Shown: one piece after another, positions 44,110 to 50,920 of the stretch
How the letters are laid out: every line of letters begins with the position of its first letter
How positions within the stretch are numbered: position 1 is the first letter of the stretch
Virus record (IMG/VR): IMGVR_UViG_3300037483_000361
Location: 32,881 to 96,880 of that record
Direction: 5' to 3' (one strand)
DNA length: 64,000 nucleotides
Origin: a virus
The notes under the pieces: model-generated
The model's database searches: none
Seen by the model: only the letters and a program-made list of their open reading frames with translations
What the model was told of the DNA's origin: nothing
Made by a program: the position numbers and the translations under genes

Positions 44110-44182
44110 TAGCCCCAAGGAGAATTGAACTCCTGTTTCCGGCTTGAAAGGCCAGCGTCCTAGTCCACTAGACGACGGGGCT
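44110..44182 (-). tRNA. tRNA-Glu(TTC)
   Basis: loop CTTTCAA. Confidence 0.88.
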
Positions 44183-44221
44183 GAATTGCCGCCCCGGGTG
44201 GAGCGACAATGTGTTTCGTGC

Positions 44222-44497
44222 TTAGTTCTGCGGGCGGTATGTCCACACGCAAATTCGGCGCGCCTTAGCTTCGGGACGCTTCGATGAAGCGGTGCGGTCG
44301 ATCCCAAACGGACCATTCTGCAAAACCGTCTGGATGACGCTCAGCCGATTACCACGGTAGTCACGCTGATCCAAGAGGGTGTGAATGTCGTCAGCAGTGA
44401 TGCCATATGACGAACGACGCAACGTTCTAGATACTAAACTATCACGAATCTCGCGGAGCATGGCTCTGCGATTCGTATTTTCTACTTGTTCAAACAT
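44222..44497 (-). CDS. hypothetical protein
   Basis: GGAGG SD. Confidence 0.6.
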   Translation of the reverse strand: MFEQVENTNRRAMLREIRDSLVSRTLRRSSYGITADDIHTLLDQRDYRGNRLSVIQTVLQNGPFGIDRTASSKRPEAKARRICVWTYRPQN

Positions 44498-44539
44498 ACA
44501 ATAACCTCCAAAATTATGAAACCTTCTCCCACAGTGGGA

Positions 44540-44610
44540 TGGAGACTAAGGGAGTCGAACCCTTGATCCTTCCGTGCAAAGGAAGAGTTATCCCATTTAA
44601 CTAAGCCCCC
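44540..44610 (-). tRNA. tRNA-Ala(TGC)
   Basis: G3:U70, loop TTTGCAC. Confidence 0.88.
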
Positions 44611-44627
44611 ATTAAAGGCAACGCAGT

Positions 44628-44656
44628 AATTTACTGCTAATCTTGGAAGTTGTCAA
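44628..44656 (-). promoter_or_regulatory. sigma70-type promoter
   Basis: TTGACA-17-TAAATT. Confidence 0.75.
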
Positions 44657-44697
44657 GTCCCGCCATAGAATCTATTTGTAATGCTATGTCGGTATTT

Positions 44698-44955
44698 TCA
44701 AATCCTGACGGGCTTACGTGTAAACTCGTCAAAGTGAAGGGACACGGCCGGAATCAACTGGTCAATAGTATCATCAGCTTTCTGCCCAAGCTTGATGCGA
44801 GGGTCTTGTAGAAAAGCCGCCAGAAACGTCGGCGTATCCGTTCCCGATGGAAGCAACTTTTCAATCCGATCCAATCGCACCTTGATCCAAGGTTTGCCAT
44901 AACGGCGGCGATTCTGAATCATCGCCTTGATTACATCGTCAATGAGGGTTTTCAT
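44698..44955 (-). CDS. hypothetical protein
   Basis: ORF. Confidence 0.55.
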   Translation of the reverse strand: MKTLIDDVIKAMIQNRRRYGKPWIKVRLDRIEKLLPSGTDTPTFLAAFLQDPRIKLGQKADDTIDQLIPAVSLHFDEFTRKPVRI

Positions 44956-45373
44956 GATGAAACTTCTCCACAGCCTTCAAGGCTCTCAATAACCAGTTGT
45001 CATTCTTGTGTGAGTCCAGCGTTGCATCGTAGAACGGAACCACAAATGCTCCATGTCCACTCTTCTGAACATGTGCAACCAGCGCCTCCATGTCATCGAT
45101 ATAAAACTTCGGCGACTCTTGTATCACCGGCGGTTCTGACTTGTCTGCATATCCGAAAACATACTGATCGAGATTGACTTGTGCATTAAGTGCATACGTC
45201 AAATGAGTCGAAACCATGTTGATCTTGCATTCAGCGTATTGAGCTCCGCCGGCGGACCATATAATGATCTGATACCCTGCGGCATAGAGCCGTTGAAGTA
45301 GCTCGATAACATGCGGTCGCGGGTTATCGTTTTGGTCGATGAGCGTTCCATCGACATCTATGAACACGAACAC
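44939..45373 (-). CDS. HAD-superfamily phosphatase
   Basis: FIDVDGTL, IWSAGG, YIDD; GTG start after tRNA. Confidence 0.8.
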   Translation of the reverse strand: MFVFIDVDGTLIDQNDNPRPHVIELLQRLYAAGYQIIIWSAGGAQYAECKINMVSTHLTYALNAQVNLDQYVFGYADKSEPPVIQESPKFYIDDMEALVAHVQKSGHGAFVVPFYDATLDSHKNDNWLLRALKAVEKFHHENPH

Positions 45374-45390
45374 AATTGAACCTTTCGTAA

Positions 45391-45463
45391 TAGCCCATAG
45401 GGGAATTGAACCCCTCTTTTCAGATTGAGAATCTGATGTCCTGAACCGATAGACGAATGAGCC
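45391..45463 (-). tRNA. tRNA-Glu(CTC)
   Basis: loop TTCTCAA. Confidence 0.9.
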
Positions 45464-45464
45464 G

Positions 45465-45790
45465 AGGATGTGGCCCCACACCGCGCGTGCGAACTTATCG
45501 GAAGGTACCGAACGAAATACCTTCACCACTAGAGTTACGGCCTTACGACCGTCATTAGGTTCTACCTAGGAGCGTGGTATTTTGTACTTCCCCACAGCAC
45601 CGATGGTGGCCCACTGTCGGAGATTCTCTGTCCATTCCTGTGGGAACATTGGACAGGCTACTCCGTAGGCGACCGTCGCTTTCCACGATGCTAGATAGAA
45701 CCAAGATGGCGGGAGTCCAGCCGTCAGACTGTTCAGGGCTTGCAGGACTCGAACCCACATGTTGCCATTTGACGGACCCTTAACTCCCAT
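45465..45790 (-). ncRNA. unnamed multi-domain RNA with a T-loop hairpin
   Basis: GTGGG-TTCGAGT-CCTGC; 12-bp GGTTCTATCTAG/CTAGGTAGAACC. Confidence 0.45.
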
Positions 45791-45796
45791 AACAAG

Positions 45797-45870
45797 TCGG
45801 GCGGAATGGTGATGGCCCATTATAGCCGGCTCTCATGGCCGGAGTCCTCACTCCTTAGACGACTGCCCGA
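45797..45870 (-). pseudogene. tRNA-like cloverleaf with aberrant T loop (GCCATCA) and anticodon loop CATGAGA
   Basis: Glu/Asp-type D arm, four stems. Confidence 0.5.
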
Positions 45871-45872
45871 TA

Positions 45873-45947
45873 TAGCCCCGCGGGGTGTCGATCCCCGTTC
45901 TCCACCTTGAAAGAGTGGCATCCTAGCCAAACGTAGACGATGGGGCC
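45873..45947 (-). tRNA. tRNA-Glu(TTC)
   Basis: loop CTTTCAA. Confidence 0.85.
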
Positions 45948-46570
45948 AAACATGCTGGTATACGTATTTTATTAGACATTTGCATCTCAATATTAGACCC
46001 AACCGCCTTCAATTTCAATGGGTCATTTTCATTGAGATAGAACTTTCCTTTAATCTCAACCCAATAATCGTGTTCTGGTAGGTAAAAATCGGGCCAATAC
46101 TTCCTTGACTTTCCATATTTGTCTCGGTATGGAAAAAACTTCGTAGTATTCTTCTCCCACCGTATTCCATGCAAATCCATCAGCTCGGCAAACGTTCTTT
46201 CTGCACCGCAATCCATCCAAGACCCTTTGTAGAAACTTCGAATCTTTCTAGTAGAGTTGGGCCTGTATCCGCCTTGGCCCGGACGTTTTCGGGCGCATGC
46301 ATCCGAACAATATTTCCTATGACGTTTCCAATACAAAACCATAAACTCTACATTGCAAGTTGGGCATATTTTGGATACAACTGGATTAGATGTTTTGTGG
46401 TAGATTGCTCCCCCCACTTTATAACCTGCCATTCGGCTGGATAGTCTACTCTTATGGCGCGCAGACCACGTTCTACTATTAGCACATGACCGAGAACAAA
46501 ATCGACCACTACTATATTTTCCACAAGGTGCTGAAATCTCTATACCACATTTTTCACACTTCATTGACAA
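45923..46570 (-). CDS. Zn-finger + PD-(D/E)XK endonuclease (homing-type)
   Basis: FCSRSC, YCS..C, YWPDFYL..WVEIKG. Confidence 0.75.
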   Translation of the reverse strand: MSMKCEKCGIEISAPCGKYSSGRFCSRSCANSRTWSARHKSRLSSRMAGYKVGGAIYHKTSNPVVSKICPTCNVEFMVLYWKRHRKYCSDACARKRPGQGGYRPNSTRKIRSFYKGSWMDCGAERTFAELMDLHGIRWEKNTTKFFPYRDKYGKSRKYWPDFYLPEHDYWVEIKGKFYLNENDPLKLKAVGSNIEMQMSNKIRIPACLAPSSTFG

Positions 46571-46624
46571 ATCCTCCTACTAAATAAGTAGTCGAACCCT
46601 TGTCTAAAAGCGTGATTTTCTACA

Positions 46625-46698
46625 CGGGTCGTAGGGGAATCGAACCCCTCTGGTGTCCTCCGTGACAGGGAGGCGGCCGGCCTTTGGCCCAACGACCC
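46625..46698 (-). tRNA. tRNA-Asp(GTC)
   Basis: G73, loop CTGTCAC. Confidence 0.85.
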
Positions 46699-46776
46699 AA
46701 CTTGGCGGGGAAGGATGTCAGTTCATCCTCCGAAGAAAATCAGGCGCTCGCCAGAACGCTTCCCCAAGTTTTACTA

Positions 46777-46849
46777 CGGAACCACGGGGAATTGAACCCC
46801 AATCCCCTACGTGACGAGCAGGTATCCTAAACCATTGAACGATGGTTCC
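46777..46849 (-). tRNA. tRNA-Asp(GTC)
   Basis: G73, loop TCGTCAC (C33). Confidence 0.88.
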
Positions 46850-46850
46850 A

Positions 46851-46933
46851 GTAAGGGAGTGTCCTTCCAGTTAGACGACCGTTCCTCGAAAGAAACGGGG
46901 TAGACTCGAACCACCATCTCCCCCCGCATTTAC
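46851..46933 (-). ncRNA. circularly permuted tRNA-like RNA (T arm - UUCG-capped acceptor - D arm)
   Basis: GGTGG-TTCGAGT-CTACC, CCGTTTCT-TTCG-AGGAACGG, TCGTCTAACTGGAAGGAC. Confidence 0.7.
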
Positions 46934-47036
46934 CCCTATGTGAGCTCCACCGAATTGCTTCGGCTTGTAGGCGTGAGCAGGTAGACTTTCCATTAACGCC
47001 TCGTTGTATTGATCCTCACACTAACCATGATGTGAA

Positions 47037-47288
47037 GGATGCACTGAAATGGGTTTTATTTCCCGTACGGAGCCGCACCCCATACGTTCTTTATCGGCGT
47101 GTAGATTGAGTCCCCTTGCGACCGAACAACTGGCCTTGAGGCTTTCTAGAATGCCTCTAGCAAGGGCGTCGTGTAATGGTCCGCACGTTTGAGACTCTCG
47201 CCCCGCGGTACACAGTTTCACTTGCAGCCTAGCTCGCTACTCCTGTCCCATCGCCCCACTTCAACTCGCCATCAGTTTTTATGCATCC
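47037..47288 (-). ncRNA. unnamed ~250-nt structured RNA
   Basis: GGATGCA/TGCATCC termini, internal hairpins, no credible ORF. Confidence 0.4.
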
Positions 47289-47290
47289 AG

Positions 47291-47365
47291 TCGGGAAGGT
47301 GGGATTTGAACCCACGATCTCCTGCTCCCAAGGCAGACGCGCTGGCCAGGCTACGCTACTTCCCG
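47291..47365 (-). tRNA. tRNA-Pro(TGG)
   Basis: loop CTTGGGA. Confidence 0.9.
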
Positions 47366-47366
47366 A

Positions 47367-47528
47367 TTACTTCCACGTCTTGCGAATCTCTTCGGCAACA
47401 AAGTTCGGGTTGCCGGGGATCGTGCAAGCACATTTGCTAGGTTCATACGTTCCATTCATCACAAACTGCCAATGGCTGATCTTGGCGCCTAAGTGACACT
47501 CACAAGAACATTCTGTTTTCTTATCCAT
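47367..47528 (-). CDS. small Cys-rich protein
   Basis: CSCECH..CAC. Confidence 0.45.
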   Translation of the reverse strand: MDKKTECSCECHLGAKISHWQFVMNGTYEPSKCACTIPGNPNFVAEEIRKTWK

Positions 47529-47542
47529 ATTGATTTCTCTAG

Positions 47543-47618
47543 TCGAGCGGGTGGGATTTGAACCCACGTATTCTGCGATCCGAACGCAGCAAGGGAAGCC
47601 GGGCTCCTTTACCGCTCG
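47543..47618 (-). tRNA. tRNA-Pro(CGG)
   Basis: loop TTCGGAT. Confidence 0.85.
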
Positions 47619-47789
47619 TTATTGCGTCTTTTCTACTATTGCCGCCAACTCCTGAATGCGCCTCTGCATCAAACTGATAAGATCACGGCCGAGTGAGTCT
47701 TGTAGACACTGCACAATACAATTGGTGAGAAACTCGATCTCTTCCACAACTGTATTGAACAACACGGTGCGATCAGTAGAATCGCTCAT
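47619..47789 (-). CDS. small hypothetical protein
   Basis: AAGGA SD, MSDSTDRT.. Confidence 0.5.
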   Translation of the reverse strand: MSDSTDRTVLFNTVVEEIEFLTNCIVQCLQDSLGRDLISLMQRRIQELAAIVEKTQ

Positions 47790-47800
47790 ATTTTTCCTTT

Positions 47801-48190
47801 CTACTTCTTATACCGACGGCGATTCACTTTGAAGAGTTCAAACGTGCTGAGCAACTTGTCTGACTCTTCACTCATGAGCGGACCAACACCGATGGCGGTC
47901 ACGATCTTCTTGCCGGTGAAGTCGGGCGGAAACACATGACCTTCATCCACCACCACGTAGTACGGAAGGCCAAACGCCCGAAATTTTTGTTCGAGCCGGC
48001 GAATTTGCCGAAGTGACGCCTTCAAAACGATCCGCGTTCCCATCGAACCGTTCGGATGATACAGCGTCAGTCGTTCCGGGCCAATGCGTTGTGCTTCCAA
48101 GGTCGTATGAACGAACGCGTGTCCGGCTTGCGCTGCGGCTTTTCCAGCATCCATAAAGATGTCGGATCGCAACACTGCATACATTTTCAT
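47801..48190 (-). CDS. peptidyl-tRNA hydrolase type II (Pth2)
   Basis: GKAAAQAGHA, IVLK, VVDEG, TAIGVGP. Confidence 0.85.
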   Translation of the reverse strand: MKMYAVLRSDIFMDAGKAAAQAGHAFVHTTLEAQRIGPERLTLYHPNGSMGTRIVLKASLRQIRRLEQKFRAFGLPYYVVVDEGHVFPPDFTGKKIVTAIGVGPLMSEESDKLLSTFELFKVNRRRYKK

Positions 48191-48208
48191 AGTACAACCT
48201 TTCTTTAG

Positions 48209-48283
48209 TACCCCCGGTGAGACTTGAACTCACAACCTATCGCTTAAAAGGCGAGTGCTCTAAACCAATTGAGCTACGGAGGC
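48209..48283 (-). tRNA. tRNA-Lys(TTT)
   Basis: loop CTTTTAA. Confidence 0.9.
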
Positions 48284-48360
48284 ATATCGTGCAACCCGGT
48301 ACCAGGCGGAGTCATATTTTATAGTGACCTATCCGTTAGTGCACGCCACTGAATTTTCAG

Positions 48361-48436
48361 TCTAGGTGGCTGGATTCGAACCAGCGTGACCCTGCTTCCA
48401 AAGCAGGTAAGGTAAACCGGACTCCTTAACACCTAG
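48361..48436 (-). tRNA. tRNA-Pro(TGG)
   Basis: loop TTTGGAA (A37). Confidence 0.85.
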
Positions 48437-48906
48437 CTATTAAGATGCTGAATGATCCTATCAGCGATCTCTGCGGTCAATCCCCCATGTTCAAAACTGG
48501 TCTGGAAGAATGATCCATCTTCTAAATCCGCATCTTCTTCATCATCGATGACCGCAATTTTTTCTATCTTTTGGTCGTTCCACCCAAAGGTCAACGGCCA
48601 TTCCCTTTGGAGCCAATCAAGAATCTCCACACGACGAGGCGTGTCTAGTGAGAGTGACTTTACAACCGTTTTTCCAATTATGGAACCACTTGCAATGACT
48701 TTGTTTAGGTGCGCACGGCCCTCATCAGAAAGTCGCCACGTACTGGAAAGAACGATCTTTGCTCCGGTTATGTGTAGAATACGGTTGAGCTGAAAGCAAC
48801 AATCCGTATCCAACACCCAACACGTCAGCGACCCATCGGGAAGTTTCCATCCCGGAGTATGGTCGTGATTGAGCACGCCGTCAACATCAAGAAAGATCAG
48901 TTTCAC
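48433..48906 (-). CDS. HAD phosphatase, Swiss-Army-knife RNA-repair type
   Basis: IFLDVDGVLN, IVLSSTWR, EI.DWL, AVIDD, GLT. Confidence 0.8.
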   Translation of the reverse strand: MKLIFLDVDGVLNHDHTPGWKLPDGSLTCWVLDTDCCFQLNRILHITGAKIVLSSTWRLSDEGRAHLNKVIASGSIIGKTVVKSLSLDTPRRVEILDWLQREWPLTFGWNDQKIEKIAVIDDEEDADLEDGSFFQTSFEHGGLTAEIADRIIQHLNS

Positions 48907-48924
48907 ATAACCTCACAACTTAAA

Positions 48925-49031
48925 TGGTACCGCGCGACAAGTCTCCATCCGTGCATGGAGAGGCTATGGGGTGCAGTGGTCTTTCGACTTGCTTTCCGCC
49001 TGCCGATGTCGCACGTCGCCTCGCGCGGTAC
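48925..49031 (-). ncRNA. unnamed stem-closed RNA
   Basis: 11-bp GTACCGCGCGA/TCGCGCGGTAC termini, GNRA loops. Confidence 0.45.
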
Positions 49032-49045
49032 TTCGTTGAATGACT

Positions 49046-49118
49046 GACCGATGGGTGGGAGTCGAACCCAACGTTACTGGTGCGAACCCGGCCGTCCTGT
49101 CCACTAGACGACTATCCC
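49046..49118 (-). pseudogene. degenerate tRNA
   Basis: intact D and T arms, mismatched acceptor and anticodon stems. Confidence 0.55.
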
Positions 49119-49195
49119 ACTTCTTTTCCATTGTTGAACCGACAACTTCCAAGAAGCACGTGCAAAGGTGGTTCAACCTTTGCCGATCAGTCAAA

Positions 49196-49267
49196 CTCAC
49201 TCGCCCGGATTCGAACCGGGAAGAGCTGGTTAACAGCCAGCCATGATAACCGTTTCATCACGAGTGA
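49196..49267 (-). tRNA. tRNA-Asn(GTT)
   Basis: loop CTGTTAA. Confidence 0.88.
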
Positions 49268-49271
49268 AAAG

Positions 49272-49346
49272 TGTTCGGTGGGGGATTTGAACCCCCGCAT
49301 CCTGCATGTGAAACAGGCGCTCTTAACCGGACTGAGCTAACCGAAC
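49272..49346 (-). tRNA. tRNA-Val(CAC)
   Basis: loop TTCACAT. Confidence 0.88.
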
Positions 49347-49347
49347 G

Positions 49348-49493
49348 TGGTGACCCAATCGAGGGCTTGCACCCCACACTCCGTCCGAAACAGTCTATCT
49401 CTGACGTTTACCGCGTCTAGAATACCGGGGCGTGCACTCTCCCTCTTCATGTCGCGCGGCGAGCAGCTGGGCTCTTAGTAACCAGCTTGGGTC
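49348..49493 (-). ncRNA. 146-nt tRNA-like RNA with acceptor stem, encoded ACCA and large insert
   Basis: GACCCAA/TTGGGTC-ACCA, D-like and T-like hairpins. Confidence 0.55.
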
Positions 49494-49497
49494 CTAA

Positions 49498-49571
49498 TGG
49501 ACACCATCGGAATCGAACCGACCGCATCGACGCTGCCAGCGTCAATCGCCACCCTTGGGACATGGGTGCCC
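49498..49571 (-). tRNA. tRNA-Ala(GGC)
   Basis: G3:U70, loop CTGGCAG. Confidence 0.85.
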
Positions 49572-49630
49572 AAAACGCGGACCGTAGTGCGTTGCTACGG
49601 CGTCCCGTCGAGCATGCTCGATATTGTCTA

Positions 49631-49704
49631 TGGACGCAAAGGGAATCGAACCCTTCTCACGGTACGTGCGAGGCACCATCGCCACCCTTGGTACATGTGC
49701 GCCC
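49631..49704 (-). tRNA. tRNA-Ala(CGC)
   Basis: G3:U70, loop CTCGCAC. Confidence 0.85.
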
Positions 49705-49859
49705 AAACTTGGGGCTCCTAGAGTTTGCCTCTAGCGTAATCGGATACTTTCGACTTCCACTCCAAAATACTCGGGAAGTGAAAACTAATCAGAGTTGGCG
49801 AGACTCACTTGCCGGGTGCCACCCGACTGGCTCAATTGGGCCATGCTTTCCCTTCCCTA

Positions 49860-49933
49860 ATCCGGTGACAGGGCTTGAACCTGCATCGCGTGAGTTAACA
49901 GCTCACTGCTCATGCCATTTGAGCTACACCGGA
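49860..49933 (-). tRNA. tRNA-Asn(GTT)
   Basis: loop CTGTTAA. Confidence 0.88.
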
Positions 49934-50018
49934 GAGACTAGAGTTGGCGCCCTCAACGATCTCCTTTCAAATCGTTTCAAACGGGCGCCAACCATAAGCG
50001 TGAATCTAAGGATACTTA

Positions 50019-50047
50019 AATATACCTACTATTTCGTAAAGTGTCAA
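50019..50047 (-). promoter_or_regulatory. sigma70-type promoter
   Basis: TTGACA-17-TATATT. Confidence 0.75.
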
Positions 50048-50080: not shown

Positions 50081-50121
50081 AAAAAGAAATCCTCTCGTTC
50101 CGTTCGGTGGGAGAGGATTTC
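50081..50121 (-). terminator. intrinsic terminator (attenuator 3:4 stem)
   Basis: GAAATCCTCTC..GAGAGGATTTC-TTTTT. Confidence 0.8.
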
Positions 50122-50147
50122 AAGGTCACCAAAACTGCTGCATCGGC

Positions 50148-50237
50148 TTAACTCAAAATCGCACCCCACATCATATCCGCGGCCTTCGGCTCTGGATTTA
50201 CGGGCTGGTTATTTGGTTCTCGGTTAAGCTGAAACAT
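50148..50237 (-). CDS. 29-aa leader peptide MFQLNREPNNQPVNPEPKAADMMWGAILS
   Basis: AGGAG SD; precedes terminator; alternative pairings. Confidence 0.65.
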   Translation of the reverse strand: MFQLNREPNNQPVNPEPKAADMMWGAILS

Positions 50238-50263
50238 GTAGATGACTCCTGTTACGGTGTTGC

Positions 50264-50271
50264 TATAAGTA
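50264..50271 (-). promoter_or_regulatory. putative phage late promoter TACTTATA
   Basis: same intergenic motif at 23411, 24613, 27982, 43580, 56669, 61500. Confidence 0.55.
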
Positions 50272-50292
50272 GTGAGTAACGAGCTAAACGCG

Positions 50293-50811
50293 TTAGCTCG
50301 CAGTTGTAGCCCCGTACGGGGGCAAGTTCAATCGGCGACGAATGTGGTCCAACGTCTGATGGCGGGAGCCTGGGGGCAATTGATCGGCTTCATTAATCAC
50401 TCGTGCAACCATTTCCTCGTCTACCGATGCGGGCGATGTCGGCAAGCCCCGTTCATAGGTCGTGATCCACCGCGGGTCAGCAGACCGCGGTTGTACCGGC
50501 AACTCCAATTCGTAAGAAAGAATATCCTTCAAAATTTGTAACCACGTTTCTTCGTTGAATGGACCATCTGCTAGATCATTGCCACGGTGCCAATCTTCTC
50601 CTGCTCGCCAGCGGCGGCTAACCGCTATACAACCAAGATAGCCAGGCGTGAACGAAATGCTATAACGATTTTTGCTAGTCCAAAGACACAAGCGGCCGCG
50701 CTGTACACGATCTTCTAGACTGTGAAAAATCTTTTGAGAATCTGAATACCGACCCAAATCTCGTTCAACCCATTGCCGCACTTGCATTACTACATCTTCT
50801 TCTTTTAACAT
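50293..50811 (-). CDS. hypothetical protein
   Basis: GGAG SD. Confidence 0.6.
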   Translation of the reverse strand: MLKEEDVVMQVRQWVERDLGRYSDSQKIFHSLEDRVQRGRLCLWTSKNRYSISFTPGYLGCIAVSRRWRAGEDWHRGNDLADGPFNEETWLQILKDILSYELELPVQPRSADPRWITTYERGLPTSPASVDEEMVARVINEADQLPPGSRHQTLDHIRRRLNLPPYGATTAS

Positions 50812-50847
50812 ACATTCTCCGGGCGGATAGAGCCCAATTAAATGAAG

Positions 50848-50920
50848 TCCGCACGGGAGGACTTGAACCTCCAACCTTTGCCTTATAAGAGCACTGCTCT
50901 AACCATTGAGCTACGCACGG
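50848..50920 (-). tRNA. tRNA-Ile(TAT)
   Basis: loop CTTATAA. Confidence 0.88.

Follow-up and report, generated by a model that had tools for sequence, protein, structure and literature searches.

A putative leader-peptide attenuator ahead of a block of tRNA genes in an uncultured phage

The stretch of DNA analysed here (64 kb, hereafter the window) is the final part of a 96.9-kb viral contig of IMG/VR with a completeness of ~54%. ARAGORN found in the window 51 tRNA genes and one tmRNA gene, every one of them on the minus strand, and Pfam searches placed among the tRNA genes a Pth2 peptidyl-tRNA hydrolase, HAD phosphatases of the RNA-repair type, a nucleotidyltransferase and baseplate genes. 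The nearest GenBank phages (XacN1 and others) are related only by ~30-36% identity in one protein of the structural region. The tRNA genes are ordered along the array (28616-57500) in amino-acid clusters, e.g. Asn/Ala/Val/Pro/Lys/Asp/Glu first and then Leu/Gly/Lys/Cys/Gln. The locus described here lies between a conserved hypothetical gene and fourteen tRNA genes, among which genes for HAD phosphatase and Pth2 are dispersed (Pfam). The upstream gene is a member of an unnamed family in which a RAGEDWHRGNDLADGP core is invariant. Contigs of viruses and metagenomes hold >100 homologues of it, several adjoining tRNA genes, and the C-terminal half of its product is unique to this phage.

From the upstream gene to the first tRNA gene there is a promoter-like motif, a Shine-Dalgarno sequence, a short ORF, an intrinsic terminator and a sigma70-type promoter (Table 1). 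An earlier note, made from the sequence alone, had described all of these elements, and each one was found on the minus strand at the position that it gave. The note had read the arrangement as a ribosome-dependent attenuator whose leader codons mirror the tRNA genes behind it.

Table 1 Features of the locus and of its surroundings (positions in the window)
Feature	Position	Strand	Remarks
Upstream gene, conserved hypothetical with RAGEDWHRGNDLADGP motif	50293-50874	-
Promoter-like motif TACTTATA	50264-50271	-	26 nt 5' of leader ATG; 12 exact copies on one strand
Shine-Dalgarno AGGAG	50246-50250	-	8 nt ahead of ATG (50237)
Leader ORF MFQLNREPNNQPVNPEPKAADMMWGAILS	50148-50237	-	29 codons; stop TAA 50150-50148
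Segment 1 GCTTAACCGAGAA	50217-50229	-	Pairs with segment 2 and stop region; window fold without ribosome, P12 0.90
Segment 2 GTGGGGTGCGATTTTGAG	50152-50169	-	Last six codons, upstream antiterminator strand; pairs with 50124-50107
Segment 3 CTTGAAATCCTCTCCCAC	50107-50124	-	Downstream antiterminator strand, overlaps terminator 5' arm
Intrinsic terminator	50081-50121	-	11-bp stem, 14-nt loop, T5; -18.4 kcal/mol, z -4.65
Terminator arms and T-run	50121-50111 (GAAATCCTCTC) with 50096-50086 (GAGAGGATTTC); T5 50085-50081	-
Sigma70-type promoter TTGACA-N17-TATATT	50019-50047	-	3' of terminator; 11/12 positions match
Hairpin near 5' end of transcript of the 50047 promoter	49943-49991	-	Just before tRNA-Asn; -30 kcal/mol, z -6.4
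tRNA-Asn	49933-49860	-	First tRNA behind leader; ARAGORN
Fourteen tRNA genes: Asn, Ala, Ala, Val, Asn, Pro, Lys, Pro, Pro, Asp, Asp, Glu, Ala, Glu	44110-49933	-	ARAGORN
Copies of TACTTATA in the window (first base)	61507, 56676, 50271, 43587, 27989, 24620, 23418, 4417	-
TTGACA-N17-TAnnnT promoters (about ten)	62505, 56701, 50047, 44656, 41158, 34886, 27933, 23443, 22109, 2759	-

A search for homologues of the upstream gene provided 109 loci, 29 viral and 80 from metagenomes; the loci of its two closest protein relatives, P0003 and P0004 (27-kb contig), are not among them. Only one of them was syntenic, a 1.6-kb metagenome contig (L032), and all the statements about conservation made below rest on this one relative. 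Its order is tRNA-Ile(tat), gene, small ORF, terminator, promoter, tRNA-Asn and tRNA-Ala(cgc). An nhmmer search with the leader against all the fetched loci and the window retrieved L032 and the leader itself only, with no paralogous leader in the window. Exact-pattern scans of IMG/VR with the terminator, the ORF core, the 5' hairpin and the tRNA-Ala gave no relative, and blastn against the phage collection matched the tRNA-Asn only. No ORF-terminator module was seen in the more distant loci in which the upstream gene stands next to tRNAs, and the tRNA island of the distant relative XacN1 contains two terminators and no leader module. The conserved layout of leader plus terminator that the earlier note proposed to look for is present in L032 and absent from the tRNA island of XacN1. 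The upstream gene differs from that of L032 by 27% at the DNA level, far above its flanks, and its 3' half is unalignable. The tRNA-Ile(tat) (50847-50920) is 27% divergent and tRNA-Ala(cgc) (49631-49702) only 1.4%, so that evolutionary rates or recombination histories appear very uneven within one array. A conserved block, CAGTCGGGTGGCACCCGGCAAGTGAGTCTCGCCA (49790-49830, minus strand), stands inside the indel-rich spacer between tRNA-Asn and tRNA-Ala and may be a structured spacer RNA.

The coding strand of the 96.9-kb contig has 12 copies of the motif TACTTATA (1.7 copies expected) and the opposite strand has none, and nearly all the copies precede genes or tRNAs. Because of this one-strand excess and of the position before genes and tRNAs, the motif is probably a phage-specific promoter element. 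The counterpart in L032 reads TATTTATAAT. The usual flanks are (a/g)cTACTTATAg, and in two copies the motif overlaps the -10 of a TTGACA promoter. The TTGACA-type promoters share an extended pattern and have the same orientation throughout; they are probably the host-polymerase promoters of the phage. Many of them carry AGTA immediately 5' of the -10, and GACCCC precedes some. The one at 50047-50019 starts 34 nt past the T-run of the terminator, and both hexamers are the same in L032. In the class of attenuators with which the locus was compared the controlled genes need read-through, with no strong promoter after the terminator; here this promoter intervenes. Since a strong and conserved predicted promoter separates the terminator from tRNA-Asn, expression of the tRNAs would be independent of read-through. 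The hairpin near the 5' end of the predicted transcript has 1 difference in 49 bases in the comparison with L032, far below its surroundings, and might protect the 5' end of the tRNA precursor or serve in its processing.

The terminator is real. In a scan allowing larger loops it was the sole strong intrinsic terminator (50121-50086) of the 29-kb tRNA island (28616-57500), and the same scan gave none closing the tRNA block behind the leader. In L032 all the 11 pairs of the stem are kept, with one compensatory change (U-A to C-G) and one A-U to G-U, and the energy of this 3:4 pairing is -18.4 kcal/mol in the window and -20.0 in L032. The stability was retained after 23 random substitutions in 1.1% (0.011) of the trials for the terminator, in 9% for the antiterminator and in 31% for the 1:2 domain. 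From the stop codon to the end of the U-tract there are 63-68 nt, a spacing close to that of trpL. The entire 195-nt stretch folds better than shuffled sequences (z -2.2), and the 1:2, 2:3 and 3:4 pairings named by the earlier note were all located in the window at the positions it indicated. Rfam searches at E up to 10 returned no leader family, T-box or riboswitch, only the tRNA-Asn and chance matches.

The antiterminator (2:3) duplex has an energy of -16.2 kcal/mol, against -10.4 +/- 2.4 for shuffles (P 0.02), and of -16.6 in L032 (P 0.03). The 2:3 domain reaches -22.6 kcal/mol (z -3.35), which none of 200 shuffles equalled; in L032 its energy is -21.7 (z -2.36). The signal requires three bases 5' of the terminator arm and four bases of the loop; the strict 11-nt 5' arm alone did not pair significantly with the upstream sequence (P 0.73). 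The sixteen 3' bases of segment 2 are the same in L032. The inner helix (GAUUUUGAG with CUUGAAAUC) conserves 9 of 9 pairs in both phages, and the outer one (GUGGGG with UCCCAC) goes from 6 to 3 pairs in L032 with no compensation. The 2:3 pairing that the note expected to be conserved is so in its inner helix and only in part in the outer one, as far as L032 goes, and its retention there, taken alone, is weakly significant (P 0.09). The 1:2 domain has similar energies (-22.9 kcal/mol in the window and -22.6 in L032), with a z of about -1.8 that is not significant alone, and in L032 this energy is held through a different register; the two helices that the note had named drop from 7 to 5 pairs (GCUUAAC/GUUAAGC) and from 6 to 3 pairs, and the equilibrium fold of L032 prefers 2:3. 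Nor does L032 preserve the long-range helices seen in the fold of the window, one of which closes over the Shine-Dalgarno.

The leader ORF keeps in L032 the AGGAG, the ATG, the TAA, the frame and the length of 29 codons, with no indel. The spacer between AGGAG and ATG has 9 nt in L032 and 8 nt in the window, therefore the sole nearby indel falls outside the ORF, between those two elements. Actually, no indel is found from the ATG to the terminator hairpin and the adjacent spacers are full of them. The ORF accumulated 14 substitutions, distributed 4/5/5 over codon positions 1/2/3, of which 10 are nonsynonymous and 4 synonymous (counted by hand), and its divergence (15.6%) is like that of the alignable tRNA spacer (14.9%). 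By this comparison the leader peptide is evolving almost neutrally, without detectable purifying selection, and it has no PHROG family and no tblastn match in phages; it is therefore unlike a conserved small protein. The lack of third-position bias fits a situation in which the act of translation would matter and the peptide would not. Retention of the open frame is weak evidence alone, since an ORF would stay open after 14 random substitutions with a probability of 0.29. An ORF in an alternative frame, from GTG 50169, is not kept, its start being lost in L032.

The note had suggested folding the transcript with and without a ribosome. When the full-length transcript was used, the terminator was in the minimum-energy fold at every position of the ribosome, therefore any switch must be kinetic, as is also the case for trp attenuation. 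We then folded the transcript cut before the 3' arm of the terminator, with a ribosome mask of 29 nt. In the window, the fold without ribosome has 1:2 (P12 0.90) and lacks 2:3. The probability of 2:3 is 0.87-0.99 when the A site is at codons 3-15, and 0 from codon 24 to the stop, where the ribosome hides segment 2. The default fold of L032 already contains 2:3, which persists when the ribosome stalls as late as codon 22 and disappears from codon 24 to the stop. The dependence of 2:3 on the position of the ribosome thus came out in the cut transcripts, and the terminator was never lost in the full-length ones. The logic common to both phages in these models would be that a finished leader allows termination and a lagging one prevents it; in silico, antiterminator and terminator have one strand in common, and the finishing ribosome masks the antiterminator. 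As a switch score we took the drop in sequestration of the 5' arm between a ribosome stalled at codon 8 and one at the stop. The window scored 0.68 and L032 0.89, values reached by 0 of 400 dinucleotide shuffles in either. Among 37 real ORF-terminator pairs from all the fetched loci, 1-2 attain a comparable score (empirical P ~0.03-0.05), therefore the honest false-positive rate is of a few per cent and not <0.3%.

Regarding the codons, the earlier note had counted 15 out of 17 for N, A, V, P, K, D or E, which is correct, and the twelve tRNAs located before the promoter at 44656 do carry exactly these seven amino acids, as it said. The next two tRNAs past this promoter, Ala-tgc and Glu-ttc, are also within the set. 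The match of individual codons to anticodons that it described is looser, with the reader of GAA, Glu(ttc), located at 44110-44182, beyond 44656. GTA (Val13) is not read by the Val(cac) of the block, and the gene of Val(tac) sits upstream of the leader. The seven amino acids make up 41% of the residues in the proteins of the phage, versus 15 of 17 in the leader, ten of them consecutive. We compared the leader with random peptides over all the nested sets given by the order of the downstream tRNAs and all the lengths of the scanned peptide segment; the corrected P was 0.003 in the window and 0.06 in L032, and the best set was exactly the seven. Out of 1,217 small ORFs in the contig one other does as well, antisense within a gene, and 0.5% of the 29-residue stretches in real proteins of the phage reach the level of the leader (at least 14 of 15 residues in the set). 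When the start point was slid along the order of the 51 tRNAs, the seven best starts were all inside the 14-tRNA block. In the comparison with L032, four substitutions changed in-set codons and three of them leave the set (P8S, N10I and A20T). No run of regulatory codons is conserved, with Asn-Asn becoming Asn-Ile and Ala-Ala becoming Ala-Thr in L032.

The same composition test was applied to phage phiCbK (GenBank JX100813.1, 46500-53500, our locus L115), in which annotated terminators are directly ahead of three tRNA blocks, with a short ORF before each. For gp083 (45 aa), before the block Pro, Pro, Lys, Lys, Leu x3, Ser x2, the best set was KLPS (corrected P 0.001), and for a 32-codon ORF before Phe, Val, Ile, Ile, Val, Gln, Gln it was FIQV (corrected P 0.0008). 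In the third, a 20-codon ORF before Glu, Asp, no set stands out (corrected P 0.55). A match in two of the three modules raises the prior that such modules are real. Like the locus described here, they consist of a short ORF and an intrinsic terminator before a tRNA block, the ORF being enriched, in two of the three, in the amino acids of the block. Unlike it, one of their leaders is seemingly leaderless and no TTGACA-type promoter was noticed between terminator and tRNAs in the printed sequence; furthermore, they have no sequence similarity to this locus and the phages are unrelated.

Taking sequence and fold models together, it is an even call whether the element is a translation-sensing (leader-peptide) transcription attenuator. 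Transcripts starting at or upstream of TACTTATA, if this motif is active as a promoter, would carry the 29-codon leader and the leader would be translated. A fast ribosome would reach the stop codon and cover segment 2, the 11-bp terminator would form and transcription would end at 50081. A ribosome delayed before the last third of the leader would leave segment 2 free to pair with the 5' arm of the terminator, with read-through into the tRNA array. The array would also be transcribed from the sigma70-type promoter at 50047-50019 and, because it has this promoter of its own, the switch would be a translation-dependent supplement and not the sole control. A more specific version, in which the leader gauges how far the tRNAs encoded behind it are available, is possible and we put it forward tentatively. 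Shortage or cleavage of the tRNAs of the block, e.g. by host anticodon nucleases, would stall the ribosome and open the terminator, boosting the array and the RNA-repair genes once the sigma70 promoter no longer suffices. The timing that this implies, ungated early transcription and gated late read-through, is reasonable to suppose. The interpretation of the earlier note is therefore partly supported: the anatomy it described is real, statistically unusual and found in L032 as well, and the leader is enriched in the amino acids of the tRNAs next to it; the changed register of 1:2 in L032, the lack of codon runs, the in-set substitutions that leave the set and the intervening promoter do not agree with it.

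The probabilities expressed here were judged reading by reading and do not sum to one; the gauge of tRNA supply and the response to general stress (see below) are versions of the attenuator, and the reading as a non-coding RNA is compatible with it. The locus could also be an ordinary operon boundary, with a small ORF, real or spurious, and a terminator that shields the tRNA promoter, the pairing and the composition being coincidental. A terminator followed by a promoter is the commonest layout at such boundaries, and the promoter found here is strong and conserved. The ORF diverges like the alignable spacer (15.6% vs 14.9%) and would stay open after 14 random substitutions with a probability of 0.29, a similar "switch" appears in 1-2 of 37 real ORF-terminator pairs and 0.5% of the 29-residue stretches of real proteins match the leader in composition. 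However, several independent oddities would have to coincide: the z of -3.35 of the 2:3 domain, a switch score that none of 400 shuffles attained in either phage, a composition that fits specifically the adjoining tRNA block (corrected P 0.003) and the absence of indels from ATG to terminator despite the indel-rich neighbouring spacers. The peptide, with neither detectable purifying selection nor family, is also unlike a conserved small protein. We consider an operon boundary a plausible account that falls well short of probable.

If the codons were meaningless, the element could still work as a general switch of translation stress, in which any global slowing of ribosomes (starvation, ribosome-targeting toxins or host shut-off) raises read-through, as happens in attenuators induced by antibiotics. 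The antiterminator of L032 forms with stalls anywhere up to codon 22, single-codon runs are absent and there is no preference for retaining in-set codons (in 3 of 4 changes the new codon is outside the set), all of which would suit such a switch, as would the tRNA array of Anabaena that, in the text matched by our term search, is induced by translation inhibitors (PMC8421152). Against it, the composition matches the adjoining block (corrected P 0.003), with the best starts inside the block, and the same match appears in two modules of phiCbK. We consider this reading improbable, and find equally hard to favour a non-coding RNA of ~185 nt running from TACTTATA to the terminator, with a structure functional in trans or in processing or stability and an incidental ORF. 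The short unit is indeed bracketed by a promoter-like motif and a terminator, the 195-nt stretch folds at z -2.2 compared with shuffles and substitutions are even across codon positions; besides, an attenuator RNA once released can act in trans, as described for Sinorhizobium rnTrpL (PMC6614838), so that this role and attenuation are compatible. But no Rfam family matched, L032 lacks the long-range helices of the window, the well-spaced AGGAG, ATG and stop are all conserved, and the only helices kept, 2:3 and 3:4, are mutual alternatives rather than one fold.

Phage tRNA arrays are now discussed as counter-measures to host defences that cleave tRNAs. To our knowledge, the regulation of the tRNA arrays of large phages is essentially unknown, and we know of feedback from decoding speed only for amino-acid, synthetase and resistance genes. 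If the attenuator is true, the phage would gauge decoding speed and adjust its own tRNA supply, and if the gauge reading and the phiCbK modules are both true there would be a general and undescribed phage feedback on tRNA genes. The locus would then add a case from an uncultured phage that is not related to phiCbK, and one that unusually combines a constitutive promoter with gated read-through; phiCbK offers a cultured system for testing the idea. Leader-peptide attenuation as such is already known, and a use of it before tRNA genes was not found in print: full-text literature searches and searches for terms inside PMC8421152 retrieved no published attenuator before phage tRNA genes. As far as the matched parts of that article show, the long accessory tRNA array of Anabaena 7120 is cryptic and is switched on when translation is impaired (PMC8421152). 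It is chromosomal and not viral, and the term search of the same text gave no mention of an attenuator, a leader ORF or a terminator (PMC8421152).

Among the known systems, the closest in architecture are the leader-peptide attenuators of enterobacteria (trpL, hisL, pheL, leuL and the multivalent thrL and ilvL), with which the locus shares the short ORF, the mutually exclusive antiterminator and terminator and the masking of the antiterminator strand by a ribosome at the stop codon. The leaders are also of comparable length (28 codons in leuL and 32 in ilvL, 29 here), the spacing from stop to terminator is similar and the multivalent flavour is that of ilvGMEDA and thr. The enterobacterial attenuators control biosynthetic enzymes, whereas here tRNAs and RNA-repair genes of a phage would be controlled; in addition, here there are no tandem regulatory codons, seven amino acids are involved, a strong promoter follows the terminator and no Rfam leader family is matched. 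T-box riboswitches are likewise a choice between terminator and antiterminator that reports on the tRNA pool. However, a T-box binds uncharged tRNA directly, without an ORF, and controls synthetase and amino-acid genes, and the Rfam search gave at this locus no match to the specifier loop, T-box sequence and stem I architecture of a T-box. Finally, in the attenuators based on stalling (ermC-type, vmlR (PMC9226507), the uORF of whiB7 (PMC10274678) and mgtL/mgtP) slow translation of a leader switches on the downstream genes, as proposed here. They sense drugs or the supply of alanine or proline and control protein-coding genes of bacterial chromosomes, and the mgtL/mgtP leaders do so with proline codons (PMC3641672), of which the present leader has four.
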